Positions 44,778 to 63,401 of a stretch of 64,000 bases of DNA are shown here, in pieces. A program made the position numbers and the translations under genes. The notes under the pieces are model-generated. The model was not told the DNA's origin, did no database searches, and was given only the letters and a program-made list of their open reading frames with translations. The first letter of the stretch is position 1; each line of letters opens with the position of its first letter. The stretch lies in NCBI RefSeq assembly GCF_055900595.2, contig NZ_CM148325.1, one strand, 5' to 3'.

Positions 44778-45113
44778 ATGTCATTACCACACTGCCCAAA
44801 ATGCAACTCCGAATACACCTACGAAGATAACGGCATGTACATCTGCCCGGAATGTGCCTACGAATGGAACGACGCAGAACCTGCACAGGAAAGCGACGAG
44901 CTGATCGTTAAAGATGCTAACGGCAATCTTCTGGCTGATGGCGACAGCGTTACCATCATTAAAGATCTGAAGGTGAAAGGTAGCTCTTCGATGCTGAAGA
45001 TCGGTACCAAAGTGAAAAACATTCGCCTGGTTGAAGGCGACCACAACATCGATTGCAAAATCGACGGTTTTGGTCCGATGAAACTGAAATCTGAGTTTGT
45101 GAAAAAGAACTGA
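44778..45113 (+). CDS. phnA: Zinc-ribbon protein PhnA
   Basis: 111-aa frame from ATG 44778 ([30 protein letters not shown]...). Confidence 0.85.
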
Positions 45114-45139
45114 TTGTATTGCTCAATGTAATATTGGCA

Positions 45140-45300
45140 CATGATCGGTAGGCCGGATAAGGCGCTCGCGCCGCATCCGGCTACGGTGCCGACTGCCTGA
45201 TGCGACGCTCGCGCGTCTTATCAGGCCTACAAATTCTCGCACCATCCGGCAACGGTGCCTAATGCGACGCTTACCGAGTCTTATCAGCCCCCGCTTATCT
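45140..45300. repeat. REP/BIME cluster (about three REP palindromes)
   Basis: GCCGGATAAGGCGCTCGCGCCGCATCCGGC and GCCTGATGCGACGCTCGCGCGTCTTATCAGGCC-type palindromes between phnA and phnB. Confidence 0.7.
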
Positions 45301-45352
45301 GTATAATTTTCGAACTACACTTAACTGGCTTCTCTTAACTGAGGTCACCATC

Positions 45353-45796
45353 ATGCCGTTAAGTCCCTACCTCTCTTTTGCTGGTAACTGTTCCGATGCG
45401 ATTGCCTATTATCAACGCACGTTGGGCGCGGAACTGCTTTATAAAATCAGCTTCGGCGAAATGCCGAAATCAGCGCAGGACAGCGCCGAGAACTGCCCTT
45501 CCGGTATGCAATTTCCCGATACCGCTATCGCCCATGCTAACGTGCGTATTGCCGGAAGCGATATCATGATGAGCGATGCCATACCGTCAGGAAAAGCCAG
45601 CTACTCCGGTTTTACACTGGTACTCGATTCGCAACAGGTCGAAGAAGGAAAACGCTGGTTTGATAACCTTGCTGCTAACGGAAAAATCGAAATGGCCTGG
45701 CAGGAAACTTTCTGGGCGCATGGCTTCGGCAAAGTCACCGATAAATTTGGCGTACCGTGGATGATTAATGTCGTCAAACAACAACCAACGCACTAA
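45353..45796 (+). CDS. phnB: PhnB (glyoxalase-fold protein)
   Basis: 147-aa ORF MPLSPYLSFAGNCSDAIAYYQRTLGAELLYKISFGEMPK... Confidence 0.85.
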   Translation: MPLSPYLSFAGNCSDAIAYYQRTLGAELLYKISFGEMPKSAQDSAENCPSGMQFPDTAIAHANVRIAGSDIMMSDAIPSGKASYSGFTLVLDSQQVEEGKRWFDNLAANGKIEMAWQETFWAHGFGKVTDKFGVPWMINVVKQQPTH

Positions 45797-45851
45797 CCCG
45801 CCGGGAGGCCCGCCCTCCCGCACTGTCATCGAATTCCCGTTAACTCTTCAT

Positions 45852-45873
45852 CTGTTAGTCACTTTTAGTTAAC
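45852..45873 (+). promoter_or_regulatory. Putative Pho box upstream of phnC
   Basis: CTGTTAGTCACTTTTAGTTAAC resembles PhoB-box half-sites (CTGTCAT-like repeats); a second CTGTCAT at about 45823. Confidence 0.4.
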
Positions 45874-45928
45874 AAAATCGTCACGATAATCCGCCACGAT
45901 GGAGCCACTTTTTTAGGGAGGCTGCATC

Positions 45929-46717
45929 ATGCAAACGATTATCCGTGTCGAGAAGCTCGCCAAAACCTTCAATCAGCATCAGGCGCTGCATGCGGTTGAT
46001 CTGAACATTCATCACGGTGAAATGGTGGCTCTGCTTGGGCCGTCCGGTTCCGGCAAATCCACCCTTTTACGTCATTTAAGCGGTTTGATTACCGGCGATA
46101 AATCTGCCGGTAGCCATATCGAGCTGCTGGGCCGCACAGTCCAGCGCGAAGGCCGCCTGGCCCGCGATATCCGCAAAAGCCGCGCCAACACCGGCTACAT
46201 CTTCCAACAATTCAACCTGGTGAATCGCCTGAGCGTACTGGAGAACGTGCTGATTGGCGCGCTCGGCAGCACGCCATTCTGGCGCACCTGTTTTAGCTAC
46301 TTCACCCGCGAGCAGAAACAGCGCGCGTTACAGGCGCTGACCCGCGTTGGCATGGTGCACTTTGCCCATCAGCGCGTTTCCACCCTCTCCGGCGGACAGC
46401 AGCAGCGTGTGGCGATTGCCCGTGCGCTGATGCAGCAGGCGAAGGTGATTCTGGCCGATGAACCGATCGCCTCGCTGGACCCGGAATCGGCCCGCATCGT
46501 GATGGATACCCTGCGCGACATCAACCAGAACGACGGCATCACCGTGGTGGTGACGCTGCATCAGGTGGATTACGCCCTGCGCTACTGCGAACGCATCGTC
46601 GCCCTGCGCCAGGGGCACGTCTTCTACGACGGCAGCAGCCAACAGTTTGATAACGAACGTTTTGACCATCTCTACCGCAGCATTAACCGCGTCGAAGAGA
46701 ACGCGAAAGCTGCCTGA
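45929..46717 (+). CDS. phnC: Phosphonate ABC transporter ATP-binding protein
   Basis: 262-aa ORF with Walker [10 protein letters not shown] and ABC signature LSGGQQQR. Confidence 0.9.
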
Positions 46718-46741
46718 CATCCCCATCATTGAGGAAAACGA

Positions 46742-47758
46742 ATGAACGCTAAGATAATTGCCTCGCTGGCCTTCACCAGCATGTTCAGCCTCAGCACCCT
46801 GTTAAGCCCGGCGCACGCCGAAGAGCAGGAAAAGGCGCTGAATTTCGGCATTATTTCAACGGAATCACAGCAAAACCTGAAACCGCAATGGACGCCGTTC
46901 TTACAGGATATGGAGAAGAAGCTGGGCGTAAAGGTCAACGCCTTCTTTGCCCCGGACTACGCGGGCATTATCCAGGGGATGCGCTTCAACAAAGTGGACA
47001 TCGCCTGGTACGGCAATCTGTCGGCGATGGAAGCGGTGGATCGCGCCAACGGTCAGGTCTTCGCCCAGACGGTCGCGGCGGATGGATCGCCGGGTTACTG
47101 GAGCGTGTTGATCGTCAACAAAGACAGTCCGATCAACAACCTGAACGATCTGCTGGCAAAGCGTAAAGATCTCACCTTCGGCAATGGCGATCCTAACTCC
47201 ACCTCTGGCTTCCTCGTCCCCGGCTACTACGTCTTCGCCAAAAACAATATCTCCGCCAGCGACTTCAAGCGCACCGTCAACGCCGGGCATGAAACCAACG
47301 CGCTGGCCGTCGCCAACAAGCAGGTGGATGTGGCGACCAACAACACCGAGAACCTCGACAAGCTGAAAACCTCCGCACCGGAGAAGCTCAAAGAACTGAA
47401 GGTGATCTGGAAATCGCCGCTGATCCCAGGCGATCCGATCGTCTGGCGCAAAAATCTTTCCGAAACCACCAAAGACAAGATCTACGACTTCTTTATGAAC
47501 TACGGCAAAACGCCGGAAGAGAAAGCGGTGCTGGAGCGCCTGGGCTGGGCCCCGTTCCGCGCCTCCAGCGACCTGCAACTGGTGCCGATTCGCCAGCTCG
47601 CGCTGTTTAAAGAGATGCAGGGCGTGAAAGGCAATAAAGGGCTGAATGAGCAGGACAAGCTGGCAAAAACCAGCGCCATTCAGGCGCAACTGGATGACCT
47701 GGACCGCCTGAACAACGCGTTAAGCGCGATGAGTTCGGTGAGTAAAGCGGTGCAGTAA
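46742..47758 (+). CDS. phnD: Phosphonate ABC transporter periplasmic binding protein
   Basis: 338-aa ORF with N-terminal signal peptide. Confidence 0.9.
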   Translation: MNAKIIASLAFTSMFSLSTLLSPAHAEEQEKALNFGIISTESQQNLKPQWTPFLQDMEKKLGVKVNAFFAPDYAGIIQGMRFNKVDIAWYGNLSAMEAVDRANGQVFAQTVAADGSPGYWSVLIVNKDSPINNLNDLLAKRKDLTFGNGDPNSTSGFLVPGYYVFAKNNISASDFKRTVNAGHETNALAVANKQVDVATNNTENLDKLKTSAPEKLKELKVIWKSPLIPGDPIVWRKNLSETTKDKIYDFFMNYGKTPEEKAVLERLGWAPFRASSDLQLVPIRQLALFKEMQGVKGNKGLNEQDKLAKTSAIQAQLDDLDRLNNALSAMSSVSKAVQ

Positions 47759-47764
47759 TGTGCT

Positions 47765-47875
47765 CGATCGGTCCCCTCTCCCTTGAGGGAGAGGGTTAGG
47801 GTGAGGAAGAAATGCGCACGCTGGTGCCCTCACCCCGGCCCTCTCCCACAGGGAGAGGGAGAAAACATTAAACGG
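47765..47875. repeat. GC-rich palindromic intergenic repeat pair (boxC-like)
   Basis: Two inverted copies built on CCCTCTCCC...GGGAGAGGG and GGGTGAGGG/CCCTCACCCC cores between phnD and phnE; same element recurs at 53110-53240. Confidence 0.6.
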
Positions 47876-47883
47876 AGCCAAAC

Positions 47884-48663
47884 ATGCAAACCATCACCAT
47901 TGCCCCACCCAAGCGCAGCTGGTTCTCGATCTTCAGCTGGGCCATTGTTCTCGCCGTACTGGTCGTCTCGTGGCAGGGCGCGGAAATGGCCCCGCTCACG
48001 CTGATTAAAGACGGCGGCAACATGGCGACGTTCGCCGCCGACTTCTTCCCGCCCGATTTCAGCCAGTGGCAGGATTACCTCACCGAAATGGCCGTCACGC
48101 TGCAAATCGCCGTCTGGGGCACCGCGCTGGCAGTCGTTCTCTCCATCCCCTTCGGCCTGATGAGCGCCGAAAACCTGGTGCCGTGGTGGGTTTACCAGCC
48201 CGTTCGCCGCCTGATGGACGCCTGCCGCGCCATTAACGAGATGGTCTTCGCCATGCTGTTCGTGGTCGCCGTCGGTCTCGGTCCGTTCGCTGGCGTACTG
48301 GCGCTGTTTATCCACACCACCGGCGTGCTCTCCAAACTGCTTTCCGAAGCGGTAGAAGCAATTGAACCCGGCCCGGTGGAAGGCATTCGCGCCACCGGTG
48401 CCAACAAGCTCGAAGAGATCCTCTATGGCGTGCTGCCGCAGGTGATGCCGCTGCTAATCTCCTACTCCCTCTATCGCTTCGAATCCAACGTCCGCTCGGC
48501 CACCGTTGTTGGCATGGTCGGCGCTGGCGGGATCGGCGTCACGCTGTGGGAAGCGATTCGCGGTTTCCAGTTCCAGCAAACCTGTGCCCTGATGGTGCTG
48601 ATTATCGTCACGGTCAGCCTGCTGGATTTCCTCTCTCAACGGTTGCGTAAGCACTTTATCTGA
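47884..48663 (+). CDS. phnE: Phosphonate ABC transporter permease (intact)
   Basis: 259-aa uninterrupted membrane ORF. Confidence 0.85.
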
Positions 48664-48683
48664 TAAGCGAGGCATTAATATCT

Positions 48684-49409
48684 ATGCACTTGTCTACACA
48701 TCCGACCAGCTACCCAACACGCTATCAGGAGATAGCCGCAAAACTTGAGCAGGAGCTTCGTCAACACTACCGCTGCGGCGACTATCTTCCCGCCGAGCAG
48801 CAACTGGCAGCGCGCTTTGAGGTGAATCGCCACACCCTGCGCCGTGCCATCGACCAACTGGTGGAAAAAGGCTGGGTACAGCGCCGTCAGGGCGTCGGCG
48901 TGCTGGTGCTGATGCGCCCGTTCGATTACCCGCTCAACGCCCAGGCGCGTTTTAGCCAGAACCTGCTGGATCAGGGTAGCCATCCCACCAGCGAAAAACT
49001 GCTGTCCGTGCTGCGCCCGGCCTCCGGTCACGTCGCTGACGCGCTGGGGATAACCGAGGGCGAGAACGTTATCCACCTGCGCACCCTGCGCCGGGTCAAC
49101 GGCGTCGCACTCTGTTTAATCGACCACTACTTTGCGGACCTCACTCTCTGGCCGACGCTGCAACGCTTCGACAGCGGCTCGCTGCACGATTTTTTGCACG
49201 AGCAAACGGGGATTGCGCTGCGCCGCAGCCAGACGCGGATCAGCGCCCGCCGCGCCCAGGCCAAAGAGTGCCAGCGTCTTGAAATCCCGAATATGTCGCC
49301 GCTGCTGTGCGTGCGCACCCTTAACCACCGTGACGGTGAAAGCAGCCCGGCGGAGTACTCCGTCAGCCTGACGCGCGCCGACATGATTGAATTCACTATG
49401 GAGCACTGA
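48684..49409 (+). CDS. phnF: GntR-family repressor of the phn operon
   Basis: 241-aa ORF with N-terminal HTH region. Confidence 0.85.
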   Translation: MHLSTHPTSYPTRYQEIAAKLEQELRQHYRCGDYLPAEQQLAARFEVNRHTLRRAIDQLVEKGWVQRRQGVGVLVLMRPFDYPLNAQARFSQNLLDQGSHPTSEKLLSVLRPASGHVADALGITEGENVIHLRTLRRVNGVALCLIDHYFADLTLWPTLQRFDSGSLHDFLHEQTGIALRRSQTRISARRAQAKECQRLEIPNMSPLLCVRTLNHRDGESSPAEYSVSLTRADMIEFTMEH

Positions 49410-49862
49410 ATGCACGCAGATACCGCGACCCGCCAGCACTGGATGTCCGTGCTGGCGCACAGCCAACCGGCTGAACTGGCTAACCGCCTTAAAGCGCTAA
49501 ACATCACCGCCGACTATGACATTATCCGCGCCGCCGAAACCGGCCTGGTACAGATTCAGGCGCGGATGGGTGGCACCGGCGAACGCTTTTTTGCCGGCGA
49601 CGCCACGCTCACCCGCGCCGCCATACGCCTGACTGACGGCACGCTCGGCTACAGCTGGGTGCTGGGGCGCGACAAACAGCACGCCGAACGCTGCGCGCTG
49701 ATTGACGCGCTGATGCAGCAATCTCGCCACTTTCAAAACTTATCAGAAACCCTTATTGCCCCGCTGGACGCTGACCGTATGGCACGCATTGCCGCACGCC
49801 AGGCCGAAGTGAACGCCAGTCGGGTCGACTTCTTTACGATGGTTCGCGGAGACAACGCATGA
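49410..49862 (+). CDS. phnG: C-P lyase core complex subunit PhnG
   Basis: 150-aa ORF; operon order. Confidence 0.85.
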
Positions 49863-50443
49863 CCCTGGAAACCGCTTTTATGCTTCCCGTGCAGGATGCC
49901 CAGCACAGTTTTCGTCGCCTGTTAAAGGCCATGAGCGAGCCGGGCGTGATTGTCGCCCTACATCAACTCAAACGCGGCTGGCAGCCGCTGAATATTGCCT
50001 CTACCAGCGTATTGCTGACGCTGGCTGATAACGACACGCCGGTGTGGCTTTCCGCGCCATTAAGTAACGATATCGTCAGCCAGAGCCTGCGTTTTCATAC
50101 CAACGCCCCGCTGGTCAATCAGCCGGAACAGGCGACCTTCGCAGTGACGGATGAGGCGATTGCCAGCGAGCAGCTCAACGCCCTTTCCACCGGCACCGCC
50201 GTTGCGCCGGAAGCCGGTGCGACGTTGATTTTACAGGTCACCAGCCTGAGCGGCGGACGCATGCTGCGCCTCACCGGCGCGGGTATTGCCGAAGAACGGA
50301 TGATCGCCCCGCAACTGCCGGAGTGCATTCTGCACGAACTCACCGAGCGCCCGCACCCGTTCCCGCTCGGCATCGACCTGATCCTGACCTGCGGCGAGCG
50401 CCTGCTGGCTATTCCGCGAACCACTCATGTGGAGGTGTGCTGA
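49859..50443 (+). CDS. phnH: C-P lyase core complex subunit PhnH
   Basis: 194-aa ORF; translationally coupled to neighbours. Confidence 0.85.
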
Positions 50444-51507
50444 TGTACGTTGCCGTGAAAGGGGGCGAGAAGGCGATCGACGCCGCCCACGCCCTGCAAG
50501 AGAGCCGACGCCGGGGCGATACCGATTTGCCTGAACTGAGCGTCGCCCAGATTGAACAGCAGCTTAATCTCGCGGTGGATCGCGTGATGACCGAAGGCGG
50601 CATTGCCGACCGCGAACTGGCCGCACTGGCGCTGAAACAGGCCAGTGGCGATAACGTTGAAGCAATTTTCCTGCTGCGCGCCTACCGCACGACGCTGGCA
50701 AAACTGGCGGTGAGCGAACCGCTCGACACCACCGAGATGCGTCTCGAACGCCGTATCTCCGCCGTTTATAAAGACATTCCTGGCGGCCAGTTGCTTGGCC
50801 CGACCTACGACTACACCCATCGCCTGCTCGATTTCACCCTGCTGGCGAATGGCGAAGCGCCGACGCTGACCACCGCCGACAGCGAGCAAGCCCCATCACC
50901 GCACGTTTTCAGCCTGCTGGCGCGTCAGGGGCTGGCGAAGTTTGAAGAGGATAGCGGCACACAGCCGGATGACATCACCCGCACGCCGCCGGTTTACCCC
51001 TGCTCACGCTCCTCCCGCCTGCAGCAGCTCATGCGCGGAGACGAAGGCTATTTGCTGGCGCTGGCCTACTCCACCCAGCGTGGTTACGGACGCAATCACC
51101 CGTTCGCAGGCGAAATCCGCAGTGGCTATATCGACGTGTCTATTGTGCCGGAAGAGCTGGGATTTGCGGTGAACATCGGCGAACTGCTGATGACCGAGTG
51201 TGAAATGGTCAACGGTTTTATCGACCCGCCGGATGAGCCGCCGCACTTCACGCGCGGCTACGGGCTGGTGTTCGGCATGAGCGAGCGCAAAGCGATGGCA
51301 ATGGCGCTGGTTGACCGTGCGTTGCAGGCTCCGGAGTACGGCGAGCACGCGACAGGCCCGGCGCAGGATGAAGAGTTCGTGCTGGCGCATGCCGACAACG
51401 TCGAAGCCGCAGGCTTTGTCTCGCACCTCAAACTCCCGCACTACGTCGATTTCCAGGCCGAGCTGGAGCTACTCAAACGTCTGCAACAGGAGCAGAACCA
51501 TGGCTAA
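50443..51507 (+). CDS. phnI: C-P lyase core complex subunit PhnI
   Basis: Frame from ATG 50443 ([27 protein letters not shown]...), 354 aa. Confidence 0.85.
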   Translation: MYVAVKGGEKAIDAAHALQESRRRGDTDLPELSVAQIEQQLNLAVDRVMTEGGIADRELAALALKQASGDNVEAIFLLRAYRTTLAKLAVSEPLDTTEMRLERRISAVYKDIPGGQLLGPTYDYTHRLLDFTLLANGEAPTLTTADSEQAPSPHVFSLLARQGLAKFEEDSGTQPDDITRTPPVYPCSRSSRLQQLMRGDEGYLLALAYSTQRGYGRNHPFAGEIRSGYIDVSIVPEELGFAVNIGELLMTECEMVNGFIDPPDEPPHFTRGYGLVFGMSERKAMAMALVDRALQAPEYGEHATGPAQDEEFVLAHADNVEAAGFVSHLKLPHYVDFQAELELLKRLQQEQNHG

Positions 51508-52345
51508 TCTGAGCGGCTACAACTTTGCCTACCTCGACGAGCAGACCAAACGCATGATCCGCCGCGCCATCTTAAAAGCGGTGGCGATCCCCGGCTATCA
51601 GGTGCCGTTTGGCGGGCGCGAGATGCCGATGCCATACGGCTGGGGAACCGGCGGCATACAGCTTACCGCCAGCGTGATTGGCGAAAGCGACGTGTTGAAG
51701 GTGATTGACCAGGGCGCGGATGACACCACCAACGCCGTATCAATTCGCAACTTTTTCAAGCGCGTGACCGGGGTAAACACCACTGAACGTACGGACGATG
51801 CGACGCTTATCCAGACGCGCCACCGCATCCCCGAAACGCCGCTGACCGAAGATCAGATCATTATCTTCCAGGTGCCGATCCCGGAACCGCTGCGCTTTAT
51901 CGAGCCGCGCGAAACGGAGACCCGCACCATGCACGCGCTGGAGGAGTACGGCGTGATGCAGGTGAAACTATATGAAGATATCGCCCGCTTCGGTCATATC
52001 GCCACCACTTATGCCTATCCGGTGAAGGTGAACGGGCGCTACGTCATGGACCCATCGCCGATCCCGAAATTCGATAACCCGAAAATGGACATGATGCCCG
52101 CCCTGCAACTGTTTGGCGCGGGGCGCGAGAAGCGTATTTATGCGGTGCCGCCGTTTACCCGCGTGGAAAGCCTCGATTTTGACGATCACCCGTTCACCGT
52201 TCAGCAGTGGGATGAACCCTGCGCGATTTGCGGATCAACCCACAGCTATCTCGATGAAGTGGTGCTGGATGACGCCGGAAACCGCATGTTTGTCTGCTCC
52301 GATACCGATTATTGCCGCCAACAGAGCGAGGCGAAAAGCCAATGA
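51500..52345 (+). CDS. phnJ: C-P lyase (radical SAM-like) PhnJ
   Basis: Frame from ATG 51500 (MANLSGYNFAYLDEQTKRMIRRAILKAVAIPGYQVPFGGREMPMPYGWGTGG...), 281 aa, C-terminal Cys cluster CAICGS...C. Confidence 0.85.
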   Translation: MANLSGYNFAYLDEQTKRMIRRAILKAVAIPGYQVPFGGREMPMPYGWGTGGIQLTASVIGESDVLKVIDQGADDTTNAVSIRNFFKRVTGVNTTERTDDATLIQTRHRIPETPLTEDQIIIFQVPIPEPLRFIEPRETETRTMHALEEYGVMQVKLYEDIARFGHIATTYAYPVKVNGRYVMDPSPIPKFDNPKMDMMPALQLFGAGREKRIYAVPPFTRVESLDFDDHPFTVQQWDEPCAICGSTHSYLDEVVLDDAGNRMFVCSDTDYCRQQSEAKSQ

Positions 52346-53100
52346 ATCAACCGTTACTTTCGGTCAATAACCTGACCCACCTTTACGCGCCGGGCAAAGG
52401 CTTCAGCGATGTCTCTTTTGATTTATGGCCGGGGGAAGTGCTGGGCATTGTCGGGGAATCCGGTTCCGGGAAGACCACGCTGCTGAAATCAATCTCCGCC
52501 CGTCTGACGCCGCAACAGGGGGAGATTCACTATGAAAACCGTTCCCTCTATGGCATGAGCGAGGCCGACCGCCGTCGCCTGCTGCGCACCGAATGGGGCG
52601 TGGTGCATCAGCATCCGCTCGACGGCCTGCGCCGCCAGGTCTCGGCAGGCGGCAATATCGGCGAACGGCTGATGGCGACCGGGGCGCGTCATTACGGCGA
52701 CATTCGCGCCACCGCGCAGAAGTGGCTGGAAGAGGTGGAGATTCCCGCCAACCGTATCGACGACCTGCCGACCACTTTTTCCGGCGGTATGCAGCAGCGT
52801 TTGCAGATTGCCCGCAACCTGGTGACGCATCCGAAGCTGGTGTTTATGGATGAACCGACCGGCGGGCTGGATGTATCGGTACAGGCGCGCCTGCTCGACC
52901 TGCTGCGCGGCCTGGTGGTGGAACTGAACCTGGCGGTGGTGATTGTCACCCATGATTTAGGCGTCGCCCGCCTGCTGGCGGACCGTTTGCTGGTGATGAA
53001 GCAGGGGCAGGTGGTGGAGAGTGGGTTAACCGACCGCGTGCTCGACGACCCGCATCACCCGTATACCCAGTTGCTGGTGTCATCGGTTTTGCAGAATTGA
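52342..53100 (+). CDS. phnK: C-P lyase system ATP-binding protein PhnK
   Basis: Frame from ATG 52342 (MNQPLLSVNNLTHLYAPGKGF...), Walker A GESGSGKTT. Confidence 0.85.
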   Translation: MNQPLLSVNNLTHLYAPGKGFSDVSFDLWPGEVLGIVGESGSGKTTLLKSISARLTPQQGEIHYENRSLYGMSEADRRRLLRTEWGVVHQHPLDGLRRQVSAGGNIGERLMATGARHYGDIRATAQKWLEEVEIPANRIDDLPTTFSGGMQQRLQIARNLVTHPKLVFMDEPTGGLDVSVQARLLDLLRGLVVELNLAVVIVTHDLGVARLLADRLLVMKQGQVVESGLTDRVLDDPHHPYTQLLVSSVLQN

Positions 53101-53109
53101 ATGCAACAC

Positions 53110-53240
53110 CGTGCGCGCTGATCCCCTCACCCCGGCCCTCTCCCGGAGGGAGAGGGAGAAAACCGGCGCAATATTCAACACCGCGCACAATCGGTCCCCT
53201 CGCCCCTTCGGGGAGAGGGTTAGGGTGAGGGGCAATGCGC
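53110..53240. repeat. GC-rich palindromic intergenic repeat pair (boxC-like), second site
   Basis: CCCTCACCCCGGCCCTCTCCCGGAGGGAGAGGGAGAA and GGTCCCCTCGCCCCTTCGGGGAGAGGGTTAGGGTGAGGG between phnK and phnL. Confidence 0.6.
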
Positions 53241-53276
53241 GCACCGCTCCCCAATATGCGAACCACGAGGCGAAAA

Positions 53277-53957
53277 ATGATTAACGTACAAAACGTCAGT
53301 AAAACCTTCATCCTGCACCAGCAAAACGGCGTGCGCCTGCCCGTCTTACAACGCGCCTCGCTCACCGTCAACGCGGGCGAATGCGTGGTGCTCCACGGTC
53401 ACTCCGGCAGCGGCAAATCGACCCTGCTACGTTCGCTGTACGCCAACTATCTGCCCGACGAAGGGCAAATCCAGATTAAACACGGTGACGAATGGATAGA
53501 CCTGGTCACCGCCCCAGCGCGCAAAGTGGTGGAAATCCGCAAAACCACTGTCGGCTGGGTAAGTCAGTTTCTGCGCGTCATCCCGCGTATTTCGGCACTG
53601 GAAGTGGTGATGCAGCCGCTGCTCGATACCGGCGTTCCGCGTGAAGCCTGCGCCGCTAAAGCCGCCCGATTACTGACGCGCCTGAACGTGCCTGAACGCC
53701 TGTGGCACCTGGCACCATCGACCTTCTCCGGCGGCGAACAGCAGCGCGTCAACATCGCCCGTGGCTTTATCGTCGACTATCCGATTCTGCTGCTGGATGA
53801 ACCCACCGCCTCGCTGGACGCCAAAAACAGCGCCGCCGTAGTGGAACTGATCTGCGAAGCCAAAGCCCGCGGCGCGGCCATCGTCGGTATCTTCCATGAC
53901 GAAGCCGTACGCAATGACGTCGCCGACCGCCTGCACCCAATGGGAGTCTCTTCATGA
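53277..53957 (+). CDS. phnL: C-P lyase system ATP-binding protein PhnL
   Basis: Frame from ATG 53277 ([24 protein letters not shown]...), Walker [10 protein letters not shown]. Confidence 0.85.
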
Positions 53958-55090
53958 TTATCAATAACGTCAAACTGGTGCTGGAAAATGAAGTGGTGCA
54001 CGGTTCACTGGAAGTACAGGATGGCGAAATTCGCGCCTTTGCCGAAAGCCAGAGCCGCCTGCCAGAGGCGATGGACGGCGAAGGCGGCTGGCTGCTGCCG
54101 GGGCTGATTGAGCTGCATACCGACAACCTCGATAAATTCTTCACTCCGCGCCCAAAAGTGGACTGGCCTGCCCACTCGGCGATGAGCAGCCACGACGCGC
54201 TGATGGTGGCGAGCGGCATCACCACCGTACTGGATGCCGTGGCGATTGGCGACGTGCGCGACGGCGGCGATCGGCTGGAGAATCTGGAGAAGATGATCAA
54301 CGCCATCGAAGAGACGCAGAAACGCGGCGTCAACCGCGCCGAGCACCGTCTGCACCTGCGCTGTGAACTGCCACATCACACCACGCTGCCGCTGTTTGAA
54401 AAACTGGTGCAGCGCGAGCCGGTAACGCTGGTGTCGCTAATGGACCACTCGCCGGGCCAGCGCCAGTTCGCCAATCGCGAGAAGTATCGCGAATATTATC
54501 AGGGCAAATACTCGCTCACCGATGCGCAGATGCAGCTGTACGAAGAGGAACAGCTGGCGCTTGCCGCACGCTGGTCGCAGCCGAATCGCGAAACCATCGC
54601 CGCAATGTGCCGCGCGCGACAAATTGCCCTCGCCAGCCACGATGACGCCACGCACGCGCACGTTGCCGAATCCCACCAGCTTGGCAGCGTAATCGCCGAA
54701 TTTCCCACCACGTTCGAAGCGGCGGAAGCTTCGCGCAAGCATGGCATGAATGTATTGATGGGCGCGCCGAATATTGTGCGCGGCGGTTCGCACTCCGGCA
54801 ACGTGGCGGCCAGTGAACTGGCACAGCTTGGTCTGCTGGATATCCTCTCTTCCGACTACTACCCCGCCAGCCTGCTCGATGCGGCATTTCGCGTCGCCGA
54901 TGACGAGAGCAACCGCTTTACGCTGCCGCAGGCGGTGAAGCTGGTGACTAAAAATCCGGCGCAGGCGCTGAATCTTCAGGATCGCGGGGTGATTGGCGAG
55001 GGCAAACGCGCCGACCTGGTGCTGGCGCATCGCAAGGGTAATCACATTCATATCGACCACGTCTGGCGTCAGGGGAAAAGGGTGTTTTGA
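53954..55090 (+). CDS. phnM: PhnM (amidohydrolase-family, alpha-D-ribose 1-methylphosphonate 5-triphosphate diphosphatase)
   Basis: 378-aa ORF; operon order. Confidence 0.85.
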
Positions 55091-55647
55091 TGATGGGAAA
55101 ACTGGTTTGGTTGATGGGGCCGTCCGGCTCCGGGAAAGATAGCCTGCTGGCGGAGCTCCGCCTGCGGGAACAAGCTCAGTTACTGGTGGCGCATCGCTAC
55201 ATCACGCGCGATGCCAGCGCCGGAAGCGAAAATCATATCGCCCTGAGTGAGCAGGAGTTTTTTGCCCGCGCGGGGCAGCAACTCTTCGCATTAAGCTGGC
55301 ATGCTAATAGCTACTATTACGGTGCCGGGCTGGAAATTGACCTCTGGCTGCACGCCGGATTCGACGTGGTGGTCAACGGTTCACGCGCCCATCTGCCGCA
55401 GGCGCGGGCGCGCTATCAATCGGCGCTGCTGCCCATCTGTTTACAGGTTTCGCCAGAGATCCTGCGCCAGCGCCTGGAAAACCGTGGACGGGAAAACGCG
55501 ACAGAAATTAACGCCCGACTCGCACGCGCCGCCCGCTATACTCCTCAGGATTGCCATACGCTCAACAATGACGGCAGCCTGCGCCAGTCGGTCGACACGC
55601 TGCTGACGCTGATCCATCAGAAGGAGAAACACCATGCCTGCTTGTGA
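55090..55647 (+). CDS. phnN: Ribose 1,5-bisphosphate phosphokinase PhnN
   Basis: Frame from ATG 55090 ([20 protein letters not shown]...), P-loop present. Confidence 0.85.
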
Positions 55648-56068
55648 GCTTCGCCCGGCCACGCAGTACGATACCGACGCGGTTTACGCGCTGATTTGCG
55701 AGCTAAAACAGGCGGAGTTTGACCACCACGCGTTTCGCGTGGGGTTTAACGCCAATCTGCGCGACCCGAACATGCGCTACCATCTGGCGCTGCTGGATGG
55801 CGAAGTTGTCGGCATGATCGGCCTGCATTTGCAGTTTCATCTGCATCATGTCAACTGGATCGGCGAAATTCAGGAACTGGTGGTGATGCCGCAGGCACGT
55901 GGTTTGAACGTGGGTAGCAAATTGCTGGCATGGGCGGAAAAAGAAGCTCGCCAGGCCGGGGCCGAAATGACCGAGCTTTCCACCAACGTCAAGCGCCACG
56001 ACGCGCACCGTTTCTATCTGCGCGAAGGCTACGAGCAGAGCCACTTCCGCTTCACCAAGGCGCTGTAA
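55634..56068 (+). CDS. phnO: Aminoalkylphosphonate N-acetyltransferase PhnO
   Basis: 144-aa GNAT-like ORF. Confidence 0.85.
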
Positions 56069-56069
56069 C

Positions 56070-56828
56070 ATGAGCCTGACCCTCACACTTACTGGCACTG
56101 GCGGCGCACAGGGTGTTCCCGCATGGGGCTGTGAGTGCGCGGCCTGCGCCAGAGCGCGGCGCTCACCGCAGTATCGCCGCCAGCCATGCAGCGGCGTCGT
56201 GAAGTTTAACGACGCGATCACCCTGATCGACGCCGGGCTGCACGGTCTCGCCGATCGCTGGTCGCCCGGATCGTTCCAGCAGTTTTTGCTGACACACTAC
56301 CATATGGATCACGTGCAGGGGCTGTTTCCGCTGCGCTGGGGCGTGGGCGATTCGATCCCGGTCTACGGCCCGCCGGATGAACAGGGCTGCGACGATCTGT
56401 TTAAACATCCGGGCCTGCTTGATTTCAGCCACACGGTGGAGCCATTTGTGATGTTTGATTTGCAGGGATTACAGGTCACGCCGCTGCCGCTCAACCATTC
56501 GAAACTCACTTTCGGCTATCTACTGGAAACGGCACATAGCCGGGTGGCGTGGCTGTCTGACACCGCAGGCCTGCCGGAAAAAACGGTGAAATTTTTACGC
56601 AATAATCAGCCGCAGGTGATGGTGATTGATTGCAGTCACCCACCGCGCGCGAATTCGCCACGCAATCACTGTGATTTAAACACCGTGCTGGCGCTGAATG
56701 AAGTTATCCGCTCGCCGCGCGTGGTTCTGACACATATCAGCCATCAGCTTGATGTGTGGCTGATGGAGAACGTACTGCCGTCAGGGTTTGAGGCGGGGTT
56801 TGATGGGATGGAGATTGGGGTGGAGTGA
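56070..56828 (+). CDS. phnP: Phosphodiesterase PhnP (metallo-beta-lactamase fold)
   Basis: 252-aa ORF with HxHxDH motif ([10 protein letters not shown]). Confidence 0.85.
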
Positions 56829-56862
56829 TGGGTGAGGGGCGATGCCTGCTCTAAACTCAACA

Positions 56863-57192
56863 TCACCGCCCATACTCATCTTCCATTCTCCGCTCTTCAT
56901 CTTCTAGCTGCCGACGCTCCTGATCCAGCTGGCGCTGGCGATCGTCCAGCTGCCTGCGGCGATCTTCAAACTGGCGGCGGCGATCGTCATATTGTCTGCG
57001 CCGATCGTCGTTCACTTCACGCTGCCAGCCGTCGTCGCGCGAATCTTCATAGTCTCGCCCACGGTCAGGGTTATAAGCATCGTTAATCGCCTGCTGAATA
57101 TTACCAATGGTGTCGTCGATAATATCGGCCTGGGCCGGAACGGTGGACAGCGTGAGCAGGGTGAATAAAAGAAATAGCGGAAAACGTTTCAT
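56863..57192 (-). CDS. yjdP: Small secreted Arg/Asp-rich protein YjdP
   Basis: 109-aa ORF with signal peptide and RRQ/DDR repeats. Confidence 0.75.
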   Translation of the reverse strand: MKRFPLFLLFTLLTLSTVPAQADIIDDTIGNIQQAINDAYNPDRGRDYEDSRDDGWQREVNDDRRRQYDDRRRQFEDRRRQLDDRQRQLDQERRQLEDEERRMEDEYGR

Positions 57193-57260
57193 TAGCCAAC
57201 CTCAAAAAGAAACTCTATCCACATTAGTCATTACTCATCCATGCAAGTAGTGGATGAATC

Positions 57261-57578
57261 TCAATTTTTCCGCTGCTCTATTGCCGTAATCGCCTCCACA
57301 CGTTGTTGATGACGACCGCCTTCGTACTGCGCGCCCAGCCACGCATCCACAATCATTTTTGCCAGTTCGAGGCCAACCACTCGTGAACCAAAAGCCAGTG
57401 CAACTTCACTGGCGTAATGCGGATAATCAGTGCGCTCTGACGACCTGGTTTCTTTATCAATCCCCTCACTCATTGACCATGAATAAAAGGCTGGCACAGC
57501 AACGCAGAATCCTGCGGTGCCAGCGACATGACCGCCCATTGCTCCGGTACGTTTTTTAATAAGAAACACCGGTTGCAT
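57261..57578 (-). pseudogene. rpiB: rpiB remnant (ribose-5-phosphate isomerase B with internal deletion)
   Basis: 105-aa ORF contains SSERTDYPHYAS and C-terminal FGSRVVGLELAKMIVDAWLGAQYEGGRHQQRVEAITAIEQR matching RpiB, but lacks about 50 central residues. Confidence 0.7.
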
Positions 57579-57830
57579 TGATTAATTGTGCTCAGTATTT
57601 GCCGAAGTACAATATATATAATAAATATATAAAACACCTCATATTATTTACAGAGATAATAAATTCGCATACTTTTCCCTCTTCAGCACAAATGCCTAAT
57701 AAAATGGCTCGTTCCGCTCACACTTCCACTTATTAAAATCGCAATTTCCCAATTATGATAACGCCAGCTTTAAATGACGTATTTTGCATGGATTACATAT
57801 TTACGACACAAATGATAAATGGAGATTTAT

Positions 57831-59816
57831 ATGAATAACTCTCGGTTATTCCGTTTGAGCAGGATTGTTATTGCGTTAACTGCCGCCAGCGGCATGATGG
57901 TAAATACCGCTCACGCAACAGATGAAGCGAAAGCCGCCACTCAATATACCCAACAGGTTAATCAGAATTACGCCAAATCATTACCGTTTAGCGATCGTCA
58001 GGATTTTGACGATGCCCAGCGCGGATTTATCGCCCCGCTGCTGGATGAAGGTATTCTGCGCGATGCGAATGGCAAAGTTTACTACCGCGCGGATGATTAC
58101 AAATTTGATATTAATGCCGCTGCGCCGGAAACCGTAAACCCCAGCCTGTGGCGTCAGTCGCAGATCAACGGCATTTCTGGCCTGTTCAAAGTCACCGATA
58201 AAATGTATCAGGTGCGCGGCCAGGATATCTCTAACATTACATTCGTTGAGGGCGAGAAAGGCATTATTGTTATCGACCCACTGGTGACACCGCCTGCCGC
58301 AAAAGCCGCACTTGACCTTTACTTCCAGCATCGTCCGCAAAAACCGATTGTTGCTGTTATTTACACCCACAGCCACGCCGACCATTATGGCGGTGTGAAA
58401 GGCATTATCTCTGAAGCGGATGTTAAATCTGGCAAAGTGCAGGTGATCGCTCCGGCAGGCTTTATGGACGAAGCCATCAGCGAAAACGTGCTGGCGGGTA
58501 ACATCATGAGCCGCCGTGCGCTCTACTCTTACGGTCTGTTACTGCCGCACAACGCGCAAGGCAACGTGGGCAACGGCCTGGGCGTGACGCTGGCAACGGG
58601 CGATCCGAGCATTATTGCGCCAACCAAAACGATTGTCAGAACTGGCGAGAAGATGGTTATCGACGGTCTGGAGTTTGACTTTCTGATGACTCCGGGTAGC
58701 GAAGCGCCAGCCGAAATGCACTTCTATATTCCGGCCCTGAAAGCCCTGTGTACCGCCGAAAACGCCACGCATACCCTGCACAACTTCTACACCCTGCGCG
58801 GCGCGAAAACCCGCGATACCAGCAAGTGGACAGCGTATCTGAACGAAACGCTGGATATGTGGGGTAACGACGCGGAAGTACTGTTTATGCCGCACACCTG
58901 GCCGGTCTGGGGCAATAAGCATATCAATGATTATATTGGTAAATATCGCGATACTATCAAATACATTCACGACCAGCCCCTGCACCTGGCGAACCAGGGT
59001 TACACCATGAATGAAATCGGCGACATGATTAAGCTGCCACCTGCGCTTGCCAATAACTGGGCCAGCCGCGGCTATTACGGTTCTGTTAGCCACAACGCCC
59101 GTGCAGTGTATAACTTCTATCTCGGCTATTATGACGGCAATCCAGCTAACCTACATCCGTACGGTCAGGTGGAGATGGGCAAACGTTACGTGAAAGCGCT
59201 GGGCGGTTCCGCCCGTGTCATCAACCTGGCGCAAGAAGCGAACAAGCAAGGGGATTACCGCTGGTCAGCAGAGTTGCTGAAACAATTGATTGCCGCCAAT
59301 CCGGGTGACCAGGTGGCGAAGAATCTGCAAGCAAATAACTTTGAACAGTTGGGTTATCAGGCCGAGTCCGCCACCTGGCGCGGTTTCTACCTGACCGGCG
59401 CAAAAGAGCTGCGCGAAGGGGTGCATAAGTTCAGCCACGGCACCACCGGTTCTCCGGACACCCTTCGCGGGATGTCGGTCGAAATGCTGTTCGACTTTAT
59501 GGCCGTTCGCCTCGATAGCGCGAAAGCCGCAGGTAAGAATATCAGCCTGAACTTCAATATGAGCAACGGCGATAACCTCAACCTGACGCTGAACGATAGC
59601 GTGCTTAACTACCGTAAAACGCTGCAACCTGAAGCCAACGCCTCTTTCTACATCAGCCGTGAAGATCTTCACGCCGTGCTGACCGGACAAGCCAAAATAG
59701 CGGATCTGGTAAAAGTGAAGAAAGCCAAAATTATTGGCAATGGCGCGAAACTGGAAGAAATTATTGCCTGTCTGGATAATTTCGATTTGTGGGTGAATAT
59801 CGTAACCCCAAATTAA
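57831..59816 (+). CDS. yjcS: Putative alkyl/aryl-sulfatase YjcS (metallo-beta-lactamase fold)
   Basis: 661-aa frame from ATG 57831 ([29 protein letters not shown]...) with signal peptide and [10 protein letters not shown] motif. Confidence 0.85.
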
Positions 59817-59824
59817 TGCCACTC

Positions 59825-59862
59825 ACTTTTGGGGGCGCTTAAGCCCCCAAAAGTATTTATTT
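59825..59862 (+). terminator. Rho-independent terminator downstream of yjcS
   Basis: TTTTGGGGGCGCTTAAGCCCCCAAAAG hairpin followed by T-rich tract. Confidence 0.65.
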
Positions 59863-60024
59863 TAAAAATACATACAACCAATTAATACATAAAATATATA
59901 AGTTATGAATGCGGTGGCTGAATAAAGCTATTTTTATTCATCGAGAAAATAGCCATACTGACGCCTTCAATGGATATTGATATTCACTACAGATATTGTT
60001 CGCAGCAGACAGGATGTATTTAAT

Positions 60025-60300
60025 ATGCCAACAGTTCTCTCTCGCATGGCGATGCAACTCAAAAAAACAGCCTGGATAATTCCCGTCTTCATGGTTTCGG
60101 GATGCTCATTATCTCCGGCAATCCCGGTGATCGGCGCTTATTATCCCAGCTGGTTTTTCTGCGCCATTGCCAGCCTTATTTTGACGCTCATCACGAGGCG
60201 AATTATTCAGCGGGCAAATATCAATCTGGCATTTGTCGGAATTATTTATACCGCCCTTTTTGCTCTCTACGCCATGCTGTTCTGGCTGGCATTTTTCTAA
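60025..60300 (+). CDS. ytcA: Small lipoprotein/membrane protein YtcA
   Basis: 91-aa frame from ATG 60025 (MPTVLSRMAMQLKKTAWIIPVFMVSGCSLSPA...). Confidence 0.8.
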   Translation: MPTVLSRMAMQLKKTAWIIPVFMVSGCSLSPAIPVIGAYYPSWFFCAIASLILTLITRRIIQRANINLAFVGIIYTALFALYAMLFWLAFF

Positions 60301-60318
60301 TCTATTTGAGACGCGCTC

Positions 60319-61350
60319 ATGGAAAGTACGCCGAAAAAAGCTCCTCGCAGTAAATTCCCTGCTCTGTTAGTGGTTGCGTTGGCGCTGGTTGCCCTTGTTT
60401 TCGTTATCTGGCGCGTAGACAGTGCGCCATCAACTAATGACGCCTACGCGTCAGCAGATACCATTGATGTGGTGCCGGAAGTCAGCGGTCGCATTGTAGA
60501 ACTGGCGGTCACCGACAACCAGGCGGTGAAACAGGGCGATTTGCTGTTCCGCATCGACCCGCGCCCGTACGAAGCCAATCTGGCGAAAGCCGAAGCCTCC
60601 CTCGCGGCGCTGGATAAGCAAATTATGCTCACCCAGCGTAGCGTTGACGCACAACAGTTTGGTGCCGACTCGGTTAATGCCACGGTAGAAAAAGCCCGTG
60701 CCGCCGCGAAACAGGCCAGCGATACATTACGCCGCACCGAGCCATTACTGAAAGAAGGTTTTGTCTCAGCGGAAGACGTTGACCGCGCAAGAACCGCACA
60801 GCGTGCGGCAGAAGCAGATCTTAATGCCGTATTGTTACAGGCGCAGTCAGCCGCCAGCGCTGTCAGCGGCGTTGATGCACTCGTTGCCCAACGTGCAGCT
60901 GTTGAAGCGGATATCGCCCTGACCAAGTTGCATCTGGAAATGGCAACCGTTCGCGCGCCGTTTGATGGCCGAGTCATTTCCCTCAAAACTTCGGTTGGGC
61001 AATTTGCTTCTGCCATGCGCCCTATTTTCACCCTAATCGACACCCGTCACTGGTACGTGATCGCCAACTTCCGCGAAACCGATCTGAAAAATATTCGCTC
61101 GGGTACACCCGCAACGATTCGCCTGATGAGCGACAGCGGCAAAACCTTCGCAGGTAAAGTGGATTCGATTGGCTACGGCGTGCTACCGGATGACGGCGGC
61201 CTGGTGCTGGGCGGCCTGCCGAAAGTGTCTCGTTCTATTAACTGGGTCCGCGTTGCCCAGCGTTTTCCGGTCAAAATCATGGTTGAAAAACCTGACCCGG
61301 AAATGTTCCGCATCGGCGCTTCGGCAGTCGCTAATCTTGAGCCGCAATAA
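60319..61350 (+). CDS. mdtN: Multidrug efflux membrane fusion protein MdtN
   Basis: 343-aa ORF, HlyD-like. Confidence 0.85.
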   Translation: MESTPKKAPRSKFPALLVVALALVALVFVIWRVDSAPSTNDAYASADTIDVVPEVSGRIVELAVTDNQAVKQGDLLFRIDPRPYEANLAKAEASLAALDKQIMLTQRSVDAQQFGADSVNATVEKARAAAKQASDTLRRTEPLLKEGFVSAEDVDRARTAQRAAEADLNAVLLQAQSAASAVSGVDALVAQRAAVEADIALTKLHLEMATVRAPFDGRVISLKTSVGQFASAMRPIFTLIDTRHWYVIANFRETDLKNIRSGTPATIRLMSDSGKTFAGKVDSIGYGVLPDDGGLVLGGLPKVSRSINWVRVAQRFPVKIMVEKPDPEMFRIGASAVANLEPQ

Positions 61351-63401
61351 TGAGCGCGCTCAACTCCCTGCCATTACCGGTGGTCAGGCTGCTGGCGTTC
61401 TTTCATGAAGAGTTAAGCGAGCGGCGACCAGGTCGCGTGCCGCAGACTATGCAACTCTGGGTAGGCTGCTTGCTGGTGATTCTGATCTCGATGACTTTTG
61501 AGATCCCTTTTGTGGCGTTATCACTGGCAGTGCTGTTTTACGGTATTCAGTCGAACGCGTTTTACACCAAATTTGTCGCGATCTTGTTTGTGGTCGCCAC
61601 GATGCTGGAAATCGCCAGCCTGTTTTTGATCTACAAATGGTCATATGGCGAACCGTTGATCCGATTGATCATTGCCGGACCGATCCTGATGGGCTGTATG
61701 TTTTTGATGCGCACCCATCGGTTGGGGCTGGTCTTTTTCGCCGTCGCCATTGTCGCTATTTACGGGCAAACCTTCCCCGCCATGCTCGACTATCCGGAAG
61801 TGGTCGTGCGCTTAACCCTGTGGTGTATTGTTGTCGGCCTCTACCCGACGTTATTGATGACGTTAATCGGCGTGCTGTGGTTTCCCAGCCGCGCTATCAC
61901 GCAGATGCATCAGGTGCTTAATGATCGGCTTGATGATGCCATTAGCCACCTGACGGACAGCCTCGCACCGCTACCCGAAACGCGGATTGAAAGAGAGGCG
62001 CTGGCGCTGCAAAAACTCAATGTCTTTTGCCTCGCGGACGATGCCAACTGGCGAACTCAGAGCGCATGGTGGCAAAGCTGCGTGGCAACGGTAACCTACA
62101 TTTACTCGACGCTGAATCGCTACGATCCCACCTCTTTTGCTGATTCTCAGGCAATTATTGAATTTCGGCAAAAATTAGCCTCAGAAATCAACAAACTGCA
62201 GCATGCCATTGCCGAAGGTCAGTGCTGGCAAAGCGACTGGCGGATCACTGAAAGTGAAGCGATGGCGGCACGGGAATGTAACCTGGAGAATATCTGCCAG
62301 ACATTGTTGCAACTGGGTCAGATGGACCCGAATACGCCGCCAACGCCCGCCGCCAAACCGCCATCAATGGTCGCCGATGCTTTTACCAATCCAGACTATA
62401 TGCGCTACGCGGTAAAAACGCTGCTCGCCTGTTTGATCTGTTACACCTTCTACAGCGGCGTGGACTGGGAAGGCATTCACACCTGTATGCTGACCTGCGT
62501 GATCGTCGCTAACCCCAATGTCGGTTCGTCGTACCAGAAGATGGTGTTGCGTTTTGGCGGGGCTTTTTGCGGCGCAATTCTGGCGCTGTTATTCACGCTA
62601 CTGGTCATGCCCTGGCTGGACAATATTGTCGAATTGCTGTTTGTGCTGGCACCGATTTTCCTGTTGGGCGCATGGATTGCCACCAGCTCTGAACGCTCTT
62701 CTTATATCGGCACACAGATGGTGGTCACCTTCGCGCTCGCCACGCTCGAAAACGTTTTTGGCCCGGTGTACGACCTGGTGGAAATTCGCGATCGCGCCCT
62801 GGGTATCATCATTGGTACCGTGGTGTCCGCGGTGATTTACACCTTTGTCTGGCCTGAAAGTGAAGCGCGCACACTGCCGCAAAAACTGGCTGGCGCGCTG
62901 GGTATGTTGAGTAAAGTAATGCGGATCCCACGCCAGCAGGAAGTCACGGCTCTGCGCACTTATCTGCAAATTCGCATAGGTCTGCATGCGGCGTTTAATG
63001 CCTGTGAAGAGATGTGCCAACGCGTGGCGCTGGAACGTCAACTGGATAGCGAAGAACGCGCGTTACTGATTGAACGTTCGCAAACGGTTATTCGTCAGGG
63101 CCGCGATATTCTTCACGCCTGGGATGCAACCTGGAACTCGGCGCAGGCGCTGGATAACGCACTACAGCCGGACAGAGCAGGCCTGTTTGCCGACGCACTG
63201 GAGAAATACGCCGCCGGCCTGGCAAGCGCATTCAGTCGTTCTCCTCAAATAACGCTTGAAGAAACACCCGCCTCGCAGGCCATTCTGCCGACCTTATTAA
63301 AACAGGAGCAACACGTCTGCCAGCTTTTCGCCCGCTTGCCAGACTGGACAGCCCCGGCATTAACGCCCGCCACGGAACAGGCACAAGGAGCCACGCAATG
63401 A
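61350..63401 (+). CDS. mdtO: Multidrug efflux inner-membrane protein MdtO
   Basis: 683-aa polytopic membrane ORF. Confidence 0.85.
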   Translation: MSALNSLPLPVVRLLAFFHEELSERRPGRVPQTMQLWVGCLLVILISMTFEIPFVALSLAVLFYGIQSNAFYTKFVAILFVVATMLEIASLFLIYKWSYGEPLIRLIIAGPILMGCMFLMRTHRLGLVFFAVAIVAIYGQTFPAMLDYPEVVVRLTLWCIVVGLYPTLLMTLIGVLWFPSRAITQMHQVLNDRLDDAISHLTDSLAPLPETRIEREALALQKLNVFCLADDANWRTQSAWWQSCVATVTYIYSTLNRYDPTSFADSQAIIEFRQKLASEINKLQHAIAEGQCWQSDWRITESEAMAARECNLENICQTLLQLGQMDPNTPPTPAAKPPSMVADAFTNPDYMRYAVKTLLACLICYTFYSGVDWEGIHTCMLTCVIVANPNVGSSYQKMVLRFGGAFCGAILALLFTLLVMPWLDNIVELLFVLAPIFLLGAWIATSSERSSYIGTQMVVTFALATLENVFGPVYDLVEIRDRALGIIIGTVVSAVIYTFVWPESEARTLPQKLAGALGMLSKVMRIPRQQEVTALRTYLQIRIGLHAAFNACEEMCQRVALERQLDSEERALLIERSQTVIRQGRDILHAWDATWNSAQALDNALQPDRAGLFADALEKYAAGLASAFSRSPQITLEETPASQAILPTLLKQEQHVCQLFARLPDWTAPALTPATEQAQGATQ

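Follow-up and report, generated by a model that had tools for sequence, protein, structure and literature searches.

The consensus of the REP element, GCCGGATGCGGCG ... CTTATCCGGCCTAC, occurs as inverted pairs, and REP and BIME repeats can act as stabilisers of intercistronic mRNA, as exemplified by the malE-malF spacer. BoxC composites are, to our knowledge, dispersed, non-coding and multi-copy sequences for which no transposase is known; likewise, we know of no association between BoxC and a RAYT-type transposase, IHF or gyrase, nor of any case in which BoxC has been shown to have stabiliser activity. The element formerly called BoxC has been redescribed as TMECO (Holder et al. 2015, PMC4666352), with the consensus CCCTCNCCC-N3-6-GGGNGAGGG-N3-GGGNGAGGG and 23 copies in E. 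coli K-12. These fall into type A, which has a TTA loop, and type B, which has a CCG loop, and in each of the five inverted pairs in K-12 an A unit is joined to a B unit (PMC4666352). A repeat family of 50-56 bp with 22-32 copies is listed in PMC2267715, and the equivalence with BoxC used here is based on this family size and the statement in PMC4666352, rather than on the original 56-bp consensus (Bergler 1992; Bachellier). The same sequences were described as HPG1 and HPG2, two 21-mer G-quadruplex motifs with an upstream C-rich block and opposite-strand pairing, the latter also having a T-rich leader (Kaplan et al. 2016, PMC5100583). Under the name PIT (Hoyne and Maher 2000, 2002), BoxC was found to act neither as a promoter nor as a terminator and to leave RNA polymerase unaffected, according to the summary of Hoyne and Maher 2002 in PMC4666352. 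The family, its pairing of A and B units, its potential to form hairpins, triplexes and quadruplexes, and its hypervariability are all already known.

The sequence analysed here, a single stretch of 64 kb (henceforth 'the window'), carries a phn operon on the plus strand. A first-pass annotation had placed paired palindromic repeats between phnD and phnE and between phnK and phnL, and these gene names are right, since E. coli loci with 95-99% identity bear the same names in RefSeq. The operon has no long intercistronic spacers other than these two gaps, of 125 nt and 176 nt respectively, the remainder being no more than 24 nt in length or replaced by overlaps. Both repeats are intergenic, having a stop codon on one side and the next Shine-Dalgarno sequence on the other:

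46742-47758, plus strand: phnD, periplasmic binding protein, with the stop codon TAA at 47756-47758
47759-47866, no strand: site 1, composite BoxC of 108 bp, arranged tail-to-tail as type A, spacer and inverted type B
47774-47807, plus strand: A1, type A unit (TTA second loop), CCCTCTCCC-TTGA-GGGAGAGGG-TTA-GGGTGAGGA
47808-47826, no strand: spacer 1, AGAAATGCGCACGCTGGTG, between the two tails and conserved in the hrpB-mrcB copy
47827-47866, minus strand: B1, type B unit (CCG second loop), with its core at 47827-47859 plus a GTTTTCT leader
47884-48663, plus strand: phnE, permease, intact at 259 aa, with the Shine-Dalgarno sequence GGAG at 47874-47877
52342-53100, plus strand: phnK, with the stop codon TGA at 53098-53100
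53111-53244, no strand: site 2, composite BoxC of 134 bp, arranged head-to-head as inverted type B, spacer and type A
53124-53163, minus strand: B2, type B unit (CCG second loop), with its core at 53124-53156 plus a GTTTTCT leader; strict consensus match
53164-53196, no strand: spacer 2, CGGCGCAATATTCAACACCGCGCACAATCGGTC, common to other head-to-head copies
53197-53231, plus strand: A2, type A unit of the 'A mm' subtype, CCCTCGCCCC-TTC-GGGGAGAGGG-TTA-GGGTGAGGG
53277-53957, plus strand: phnL, with its true start at the ATG at 53277

Searching the 64 kb with the pattern GGGAGAGGGNNNGGGTGAGGG, allowing up to three mismatches, returned exactly four matches, against an expectation of 0.02, and none of 100 shuffled sequences reached this number. 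The window thus contains four copies of CCCTCNCCC-N3-5-GGGAGAGGG-N3-GGGTGAGGG, found as two inverted pairs. In an alignment of the two intergenic regions, B1 and B2 were 95% identical over 40 nt (E=1e-15), and A1 and A2 were 90% identical over 41 nt (E=4e-9); the Smith-Waterman score between the two sites was 77, compared to 17.3 +/- 2.4 in 500 dinucleotide shuffles (z=24). As the sites align significantly, with a similarity that goes beyond GC-richness, the original observation stands: the same type of element is present in both gaps, each time as two inverted copies, ordered A(+)/B(-) at site 1 and B(-)/A(+) at site 2.

Each unit is composed of a C-block (CCCTCNCCC), a loop of 3-5 nt, a complementary G-block (GGGAGAGGG), a second loop of 3 nt and a G-block tail (GGGTGAGGG), measuring about 51-55 nt once the conserved flanks are included. 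The units with the TTA loop, A1 and A2, share the 5' flank G[T/C]GC[T/A]C[G/A]ATCGGTC; those with the CCG loop, B1 and B2, share the GTTTTCT leader and a CA[C/T]CAGCG[T/C]GC trailer. Site 1 starts at the base directly after the phnD stop codon, and its boundaries were set by its 93.5% identity, spacer included, to the pair found between hrpB and mrcB in K-12, from which both flanks diverge sharply. It is ordered hairpin A, tail, spacer, tail, hairpin B; site 2 is ordered tail B, hairpin B, spacer, hairpin A, tail A, and is bounded by the inverted flanks GTGCGCGC/GCGCGCAC. The inverted arms extend over 26 nt with 81% complementarity at site 1, and over 40 nt with 78% complementarity at site 2.

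When the published TMECO consensus (PMC4666352) was applied to both strands as a regular expression, B1, B2 and A2 proved to be strict matches. The minus-strand core of B1, CCCTCTCCCTGTGGGAGAGGGCCGGGGTGAGGG, is identical to K-12 TMECO #1/#4, and A2, which on the mRNA strand has all four runs of the G-quadruplex motif, is one base removed from TMECO #11/#15/#23. The exception is A1, the nearest K-12 copy to which is TMECO #2; A1 has one substitution in the last block, owing to which its fourth G-run is only GG. With three of the four copies fitting exactly and the other being a single base off, the resemblance to boxC suggested by the first-pass annotation is a correct assignment, and we put the probability that both sites are composite BoxC elements, published also as PIT, TMECO types A and B, and HPG1/HPG2, at about 0.95.

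The features shared with BoxC, PIT and TMECO are the three-block motif, the TTA and CCG loops, the intergenic position, the joining of an A unit to a B unit on the other strand, sequences nearly identical to K-12 copies and the existence of deletion derivatives that retain a hairpin. Nothing essential differs, although the A1 substitution breaks the third block; hence the three matching blocks needed for the intrastrand purine-motif triplex that single strands of the family form in vitro are present in B1, B2 and A2, but weakened in A1. The head-to-head layout of site 2 is represented in K-12 only by pair 17+18 and, in truncated form, by the copy after phnP, and the phn loci are missing from the 23 K-12 copies because K-12 has BIMEs at these positions. 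The HPG 21-mers are found exactly, as GGGAGAGGGTTAGGGTGAGGG in A2 and GGGAGAGGGCCGGGGTGAGGG in B1 and B2, as are the C-rich block that precedes them, the T-rich leader belonging to HPG2 and the opposite-strand pairing. Correspondingly, the motif of four G3 runs, GGGAGAGGG-TTA or CCG-GGGTGAGGG, is exact in A2, B1 and B2, but has one mismatch in A1, which lacks the fourth GGG. A further difference from HPG1 and HPG2 is that the G-quadruplex predicted for the isolated G-rich part has an energy of just -12.6 kcal/mol, against -95 kcal/mol for the duplex of the whole spacer in the operon transcript.

Neither spacer of the window contains the REP consensus, which does occur in the alleles of K-12, B, O157 and R9, so an identification as REP or BIME was rejected. 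Composites of approximately 100-130 bp with long inverted arms, cotranscribed within operons and forming long hairpins, are also typical of MITE-like repeats such as the Neisseria Correia/NEMIS and ERIC sequences; however, no transposase-related terminal repeats were found at the BoxC composites. Comparison of the junctions at phnD-phnE and hrpB-mrcB, including the short allele of strain F11, revealed no target-site duplication and no empty virgin site, the short alleles, that of F11 included, looking like deletion remnants. Scanning positions 45000-58000 against Rfam 15 at E<=1 identified no curated RNA family at either site: the matches to mir-7578 and whalefall-1 at site 1 were at chance level (E 0.66-0.79), far under the gathering score, and none overlapped site 2. 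The occurrence of 'GGGAGAGGG' in nanopore papers is as a T7 template-switch oligo, and is irrelevant to BoxC.

In addition to the match of site 1 to the hrpB-mrcB pair, site 2 is 87% identical over 126 nt, again including the spacer, to a pair that strain A22 carries between flgG and flgH. Hence it is the composites, and not just the units, that are the repeated entity; used as a query, site 1 has a median of 3 places per genome. The two layouts are themselves related. In 'Pseudocitrobacter faecalis' DSM 27453, the phnD-phnE spacer has two tail-to-tail pairs in tandem, and the junction between them corresponds to the head-to-head composite of site 2 (82% over 136 nt), such that the tail-to-tail and head-to-head forms are two phases of a single A-spacer1-B'-spacer2 repeat. 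The tandem pairs of this strain (QNRL01000011) span 251 nt; its phnK-phnL spacer (298 nt) contains an array with a 61-nt period and 3.4 copies, and there is a further BoxC pair around 3 kb downstream of phnL (10079-10163 of a 13678-nt stretch). Its phn operon is 92-95% identical to that of the window at the nucleotide level, but the flanks are only 70-78% identical, which suggests horizontal exchange of the operon with Escherichia.

The hrpB-mrcB locus itself has a full BoxC pair in 3,536 of 5,426 complete E. coli genomes. It exhibits the same allelic series as found at phnD-phnE, with a single-hairpin deletion form in O111 strain 8234 and a short remnant in F11, the same shorter span being present in other strains, including an ST131 representative. 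Directly after phnP, K-12 has a head-to-head BoxC composed of a type A unit and a truncated B, TMECO #22 (NC_000913.3 4314198-4314343), whereas the equivalent phnP-yjdP gap in the window (56829-56862) is only 34 nt and has no BoxC. The three slots of the phn region therefore differ between the lineages in both directions.

In K-12, B, O157 and ST131-type strains, both phn spacers contain canonical inverted REP pairs, or BIMEs. As the RefSeq copy of MG1655 used here has no repeat_region features, this label relies, for the K-12 alleles, on the sequence and on a median of 27 places per genome. In the BIME alleles, everything between the stop codon and a point approximately 14-20 nt before the next start codon is replaced. 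Across the 5,426 complete genomes, the alleles were distributed as follows:

phnD-phnE: BIME in 3,874 (71%); BoxC-derived in 1,505 (28%), of which full BoxC pair in 368
phnK-phnL: BIME in 4,840; BoxC-derived in 545, of which full BoxC pair in 545

In the lineage of the window, BoxC composites thus fill two gaps that hold REP or BIME pairs in most E. coli. Both sites also co-occur in strains such as N96 and Z0117EC0005, to which the whole phn operon of the window aligns in one piece, and O121 RM8352 is another natural carrier of BoxC alleles. The two kinds of repeat share the slots, an inverted-pair design and a long hairpin lacking a U-tract, of comparable energy per nucleotide, but they belong to unrelated sequence families. 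At phnD-phnE, about 1,137 genomes have BoxC-derived sequence that is not a full pair, and the two examples examined are deletions: that in NR329 falls between two CCCTCTCCC blocks and that in Ec40743 between G-blocks, and in each one perfect hairpin, of 9-11 bp in the examined alleles, remains. Deletions that leave a hairpin have been termed the 'palindrome effect' (Holder et al., PMC4666352). The repeated blocks would make BoxC DNA prone to slippage, deleting sequence such that a single hairpin is left; retention of the hairpin is in any case the outcome of slippage between direct repeats, and does not prove selection.

To extend the comparison to other genera, species-representative genomes were scanned for PhnL, giving at least 80 loci. 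Those listed include no Escherichia species, other members of this genus being absent from the survey, but do include the Escherichia-like operon in 'Pseudocitrobacter'. Among the loci listed, Kluyvera genomosp. 1 has a BoxC pair at phnD-phnE in the same orientation as the window. Leclercia adecarboxylata has a whole composite there, outer flanks included (1161-1277 of the locus), in the opposite orientation to that of Kluyvera and Escherichia, implying an inversion or an independent insertion. Two Enterobacter genomes have degenerate BoxC remnants at this position, Lelliottia, Citrobacter and Cedecea have REP or BIME sequences, and Hafnia, Shimwellia, Photobacterium and others have unrelated hairpins. 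Six Pseudomonas loci have phnD-phnE spacers of 141-171 nt, folding at -67 to -88 kcal/mol, and these probably hold a different structured element in the same slot.

Thirty-seven species among the loci listed have phnE directly after phnD. In all 37 the spacer is at least 55 nt long, in 33 it contains a stem that runs for 8 bp or more without interruption, and in 30 the folding z score is -2 or lower (the other seven being above -2), with a median of -3.5. The phnK-phnL spacer, again among the loci listed, has a median length of 27 nt; 52 of 79 species have one shorter than 40 nt, and only about 10 show clear structure in it. The slot after phnD hence looks to be conserved as a structured spacer, and that after phnK appears more like an occasional landing place. 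As most species have no structure between phnK and phnL, the insertion at site 2 has probably just been tolerated, with little if any function being required of it. The conservation of structure after phnD could, however, reflect long spacers attracting structured repeats rather than selection for a hairpin.

The suggestion that these repeats form strong hairpins in the operon transcript is supported by RNA folding. The first-pass annotation also raised mRNA stability or polarity as properties that such hairpins may influence. The site 1 spacer is predicted to form one long hairpin between A and B, at about -71 kcal/mol (-70.8 to -71.2; z -7.6), and the site 2 spacer likewise, at -95.1 kcal/mol (z -6.7). 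An alternative fold with two local hairpins gives -45.7 and -57.0 kcal/mol, and the BIME alleles fold in a similar way to the BoxC spacers, at -50.5 kcal/mol for phnD-phnE and -61.0 kcal/mol for phnK-phnL. When folding took account of G-quadruplexes, these appeared only in the isolated G-rich half of A2, and were never competitive in the full spacer. The bases that follow the BoxC hairpins are AGAAAAC or GGGGCAATG, with no U-tract on the plus strand, hence the composites are not intrinsic terminators; a scan of the operon strand for terminators and promoters found nothing at either site.

Stable stem-loops without a U-tract, including REP sequences, define the steady-state 3' ends of mRNA in E. 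coli, and protect the message from PNPase and RNase II (PMC6061677). During phosphate starvation, read coverage over the K-12 phn operon varies, and declines along its length (PMC3734233). The site 1 composite would fill the structured-spacer slot conserved across Proteobacteria, and its hairpin would block PNPase and RNase II as stable U-less stem-loops do elsewhere in E. coli; the phnCD segment, encoding the binding protein, would thereby outlive the distal phn message. The BoxC pair at site 1 would then do what a BIME or native hairpin does in relatives. We propose only tentatively, at somewhat less than even odds, that site 1 acts as a barrier to 3' exonucleases for the phnCD mRNA, on the basis of its predicted structure and comparative position; BoxC identity and this role, when taken as one combined statement, have the balance slightly in their favour. 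The broader idea that what is selected at phnD-phnE is the RNA stem-loop itself, with BoxC pairs, BIMEs, single BoxC hairpins and lineage-specific hairpins being interchangeable, we consider rather unlikely, albeit far from negligible.

There is an appreciable, though minority, chance that the elements are instead selfish or neutral structured DNA repeats, tolerated in long spacers and leaving phn expression unaffected, with their sole consequence being local DNA instability through triplex, G-quadruplex or cruciform formation, or through replication slippage. Three decades have passed without a function being found, and promoter and terminator activity are lacking according to the summary in PMC4666352; the loci are hypervariable, as published, with at least three allelic states at both phnD-phnE and hrpB-mrcB. 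The unequal occupancy of the phn slots in K-12 and the window, including the K-12-only copy after phnP, the unstructured phnK-phnL spacer of most species among the loci listed and the reversed orientation in Leclercia all fit with neutrality, and the hairpin-retaining deletions are exactly what slippage would yield. However, the phnD-phnE spacer is structured in about 30 of the 37 species listed, whatever its sequence family, and the perfect hairpin survives in the deletion alleles examined, whilst stable triplex formation is unsupported by in vivo footprinting.

A further alternative, which seems improbable, is that the A:B duplex of approximately 45-60 bp is cut by RNase III, dividing the polycistronic message in two, or that the foot of the hairpin, 10-13 nt past the stop codon, stalls terminating ribosomes and so reduces the output of PhnD or PhnK. 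The minimum free energy structure is indeed a single long, near-perfect duplex with only 1-nt bulges, and the stems start 13 nt past the phnD stop codon and 10 nt past that of phnK. REP sequences within around 15 nt of a stop codon reportedly lower translation of the upstream gene. The Neisseria Correia/NEMIS hairpins are described as RNase III targets, and ERIC as exposing RNase E sites (PMC2229807). Nevertheless, co-transcriptional folding would favour the two local hairpins over the long duplex, and the single-hairpin alleles, which are common, lack the length that RNase III needs. More improbable still is a transcriptional attenuator, through which polymerase pausing or Rho loading would lessen read-through into phnE-P or phnL-P. 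Untranslated gaps of 125 nt and 176 nt do lie within the operon, attenuation has reportedly been associated with BIMEs (Espeli et al. 2001), and a terminator role was speculated upon for in-operon copies by Kaplan et al. (PMC5100583). Against this are the absence of a U-tract, the sequestration of the C-rich stretches in helices of high stability, which leaves these stretches poorly suited as rut sites, and the lack of any terminator activity or effect on RNA polymerase of PIT elements in the summary given by PMC4666352. A chance resemblance between GC-rich palindromes, or a divergent REP sequence, is already refuted: both types of element are GC-rich, palindromic and intergenic, but the number of matches relative to expectation, the alignment z score, the near-perfect identity to copies at unrelated loci and the restriction of the REP consensus to the alternative alleles are incompatible with it.

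The finding is real but ordinary, and leaves the classification of BoxC unchanged; the value added is modest and comparative. Two unrelated repeat families alternate at the same two slots across 5,426 genomes, and the analysis quantifies this dimorphism, identifies BoxC pairs at the same slot in other genera and distinguishes a conserved structured slot after phnD from an opportunistic one after phnK. Whether BoxC or REP elements do anything therefore becomes a question that can be tested at a defined locus with natural alleles at hand. Were the stem-loop to be what is selected after phnD, the slot would set the ratio of the binding protein mRNA to the rest of the operon, BoxC, described in 1992, would for the first time have a cellular role that can be demonstrated, and the E. 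coli allelic series, with BIMEs in 71% and BoxC-derived sequence in 28%, would constitute a ready-made experiment.

Elsewhere in the region, positions 45151-45227, upstream of phnC, strongly match the Rfam family naRNA4/CssrE (99.2 bits, relative to a gathering score of 59.5), a family of nucleoid-associated RNAs that originates from a REP cluster. Comparison of positions 45900-62000 with the 5,426 complete E. coli genomes gave a best identity of 97.7% over the phn operon, with no genome attaining 99%, and just two attain 99% over the mdtN-yjcS flank, indicating that the window represents either a poorly represented Escherichia lineage or a divergent phn haplotype. The window has an intact 259-codon phnE open reading frame at 47884-48663, the K-12 orthologue of which is annotated as frameshifted. 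Finally, and of practical relevance to annotation, an ATG at 53235, within the BoxC flank, shares the reading frame of phnL, and mechanical lists of open reading frames consequently give the gene a false 14-codon N-terminal extension (53235-53276). The phnL homologues in RefSeq begin at the equivalent of 53277, 3' of a GAGG Shine-Dalgarno sequence.
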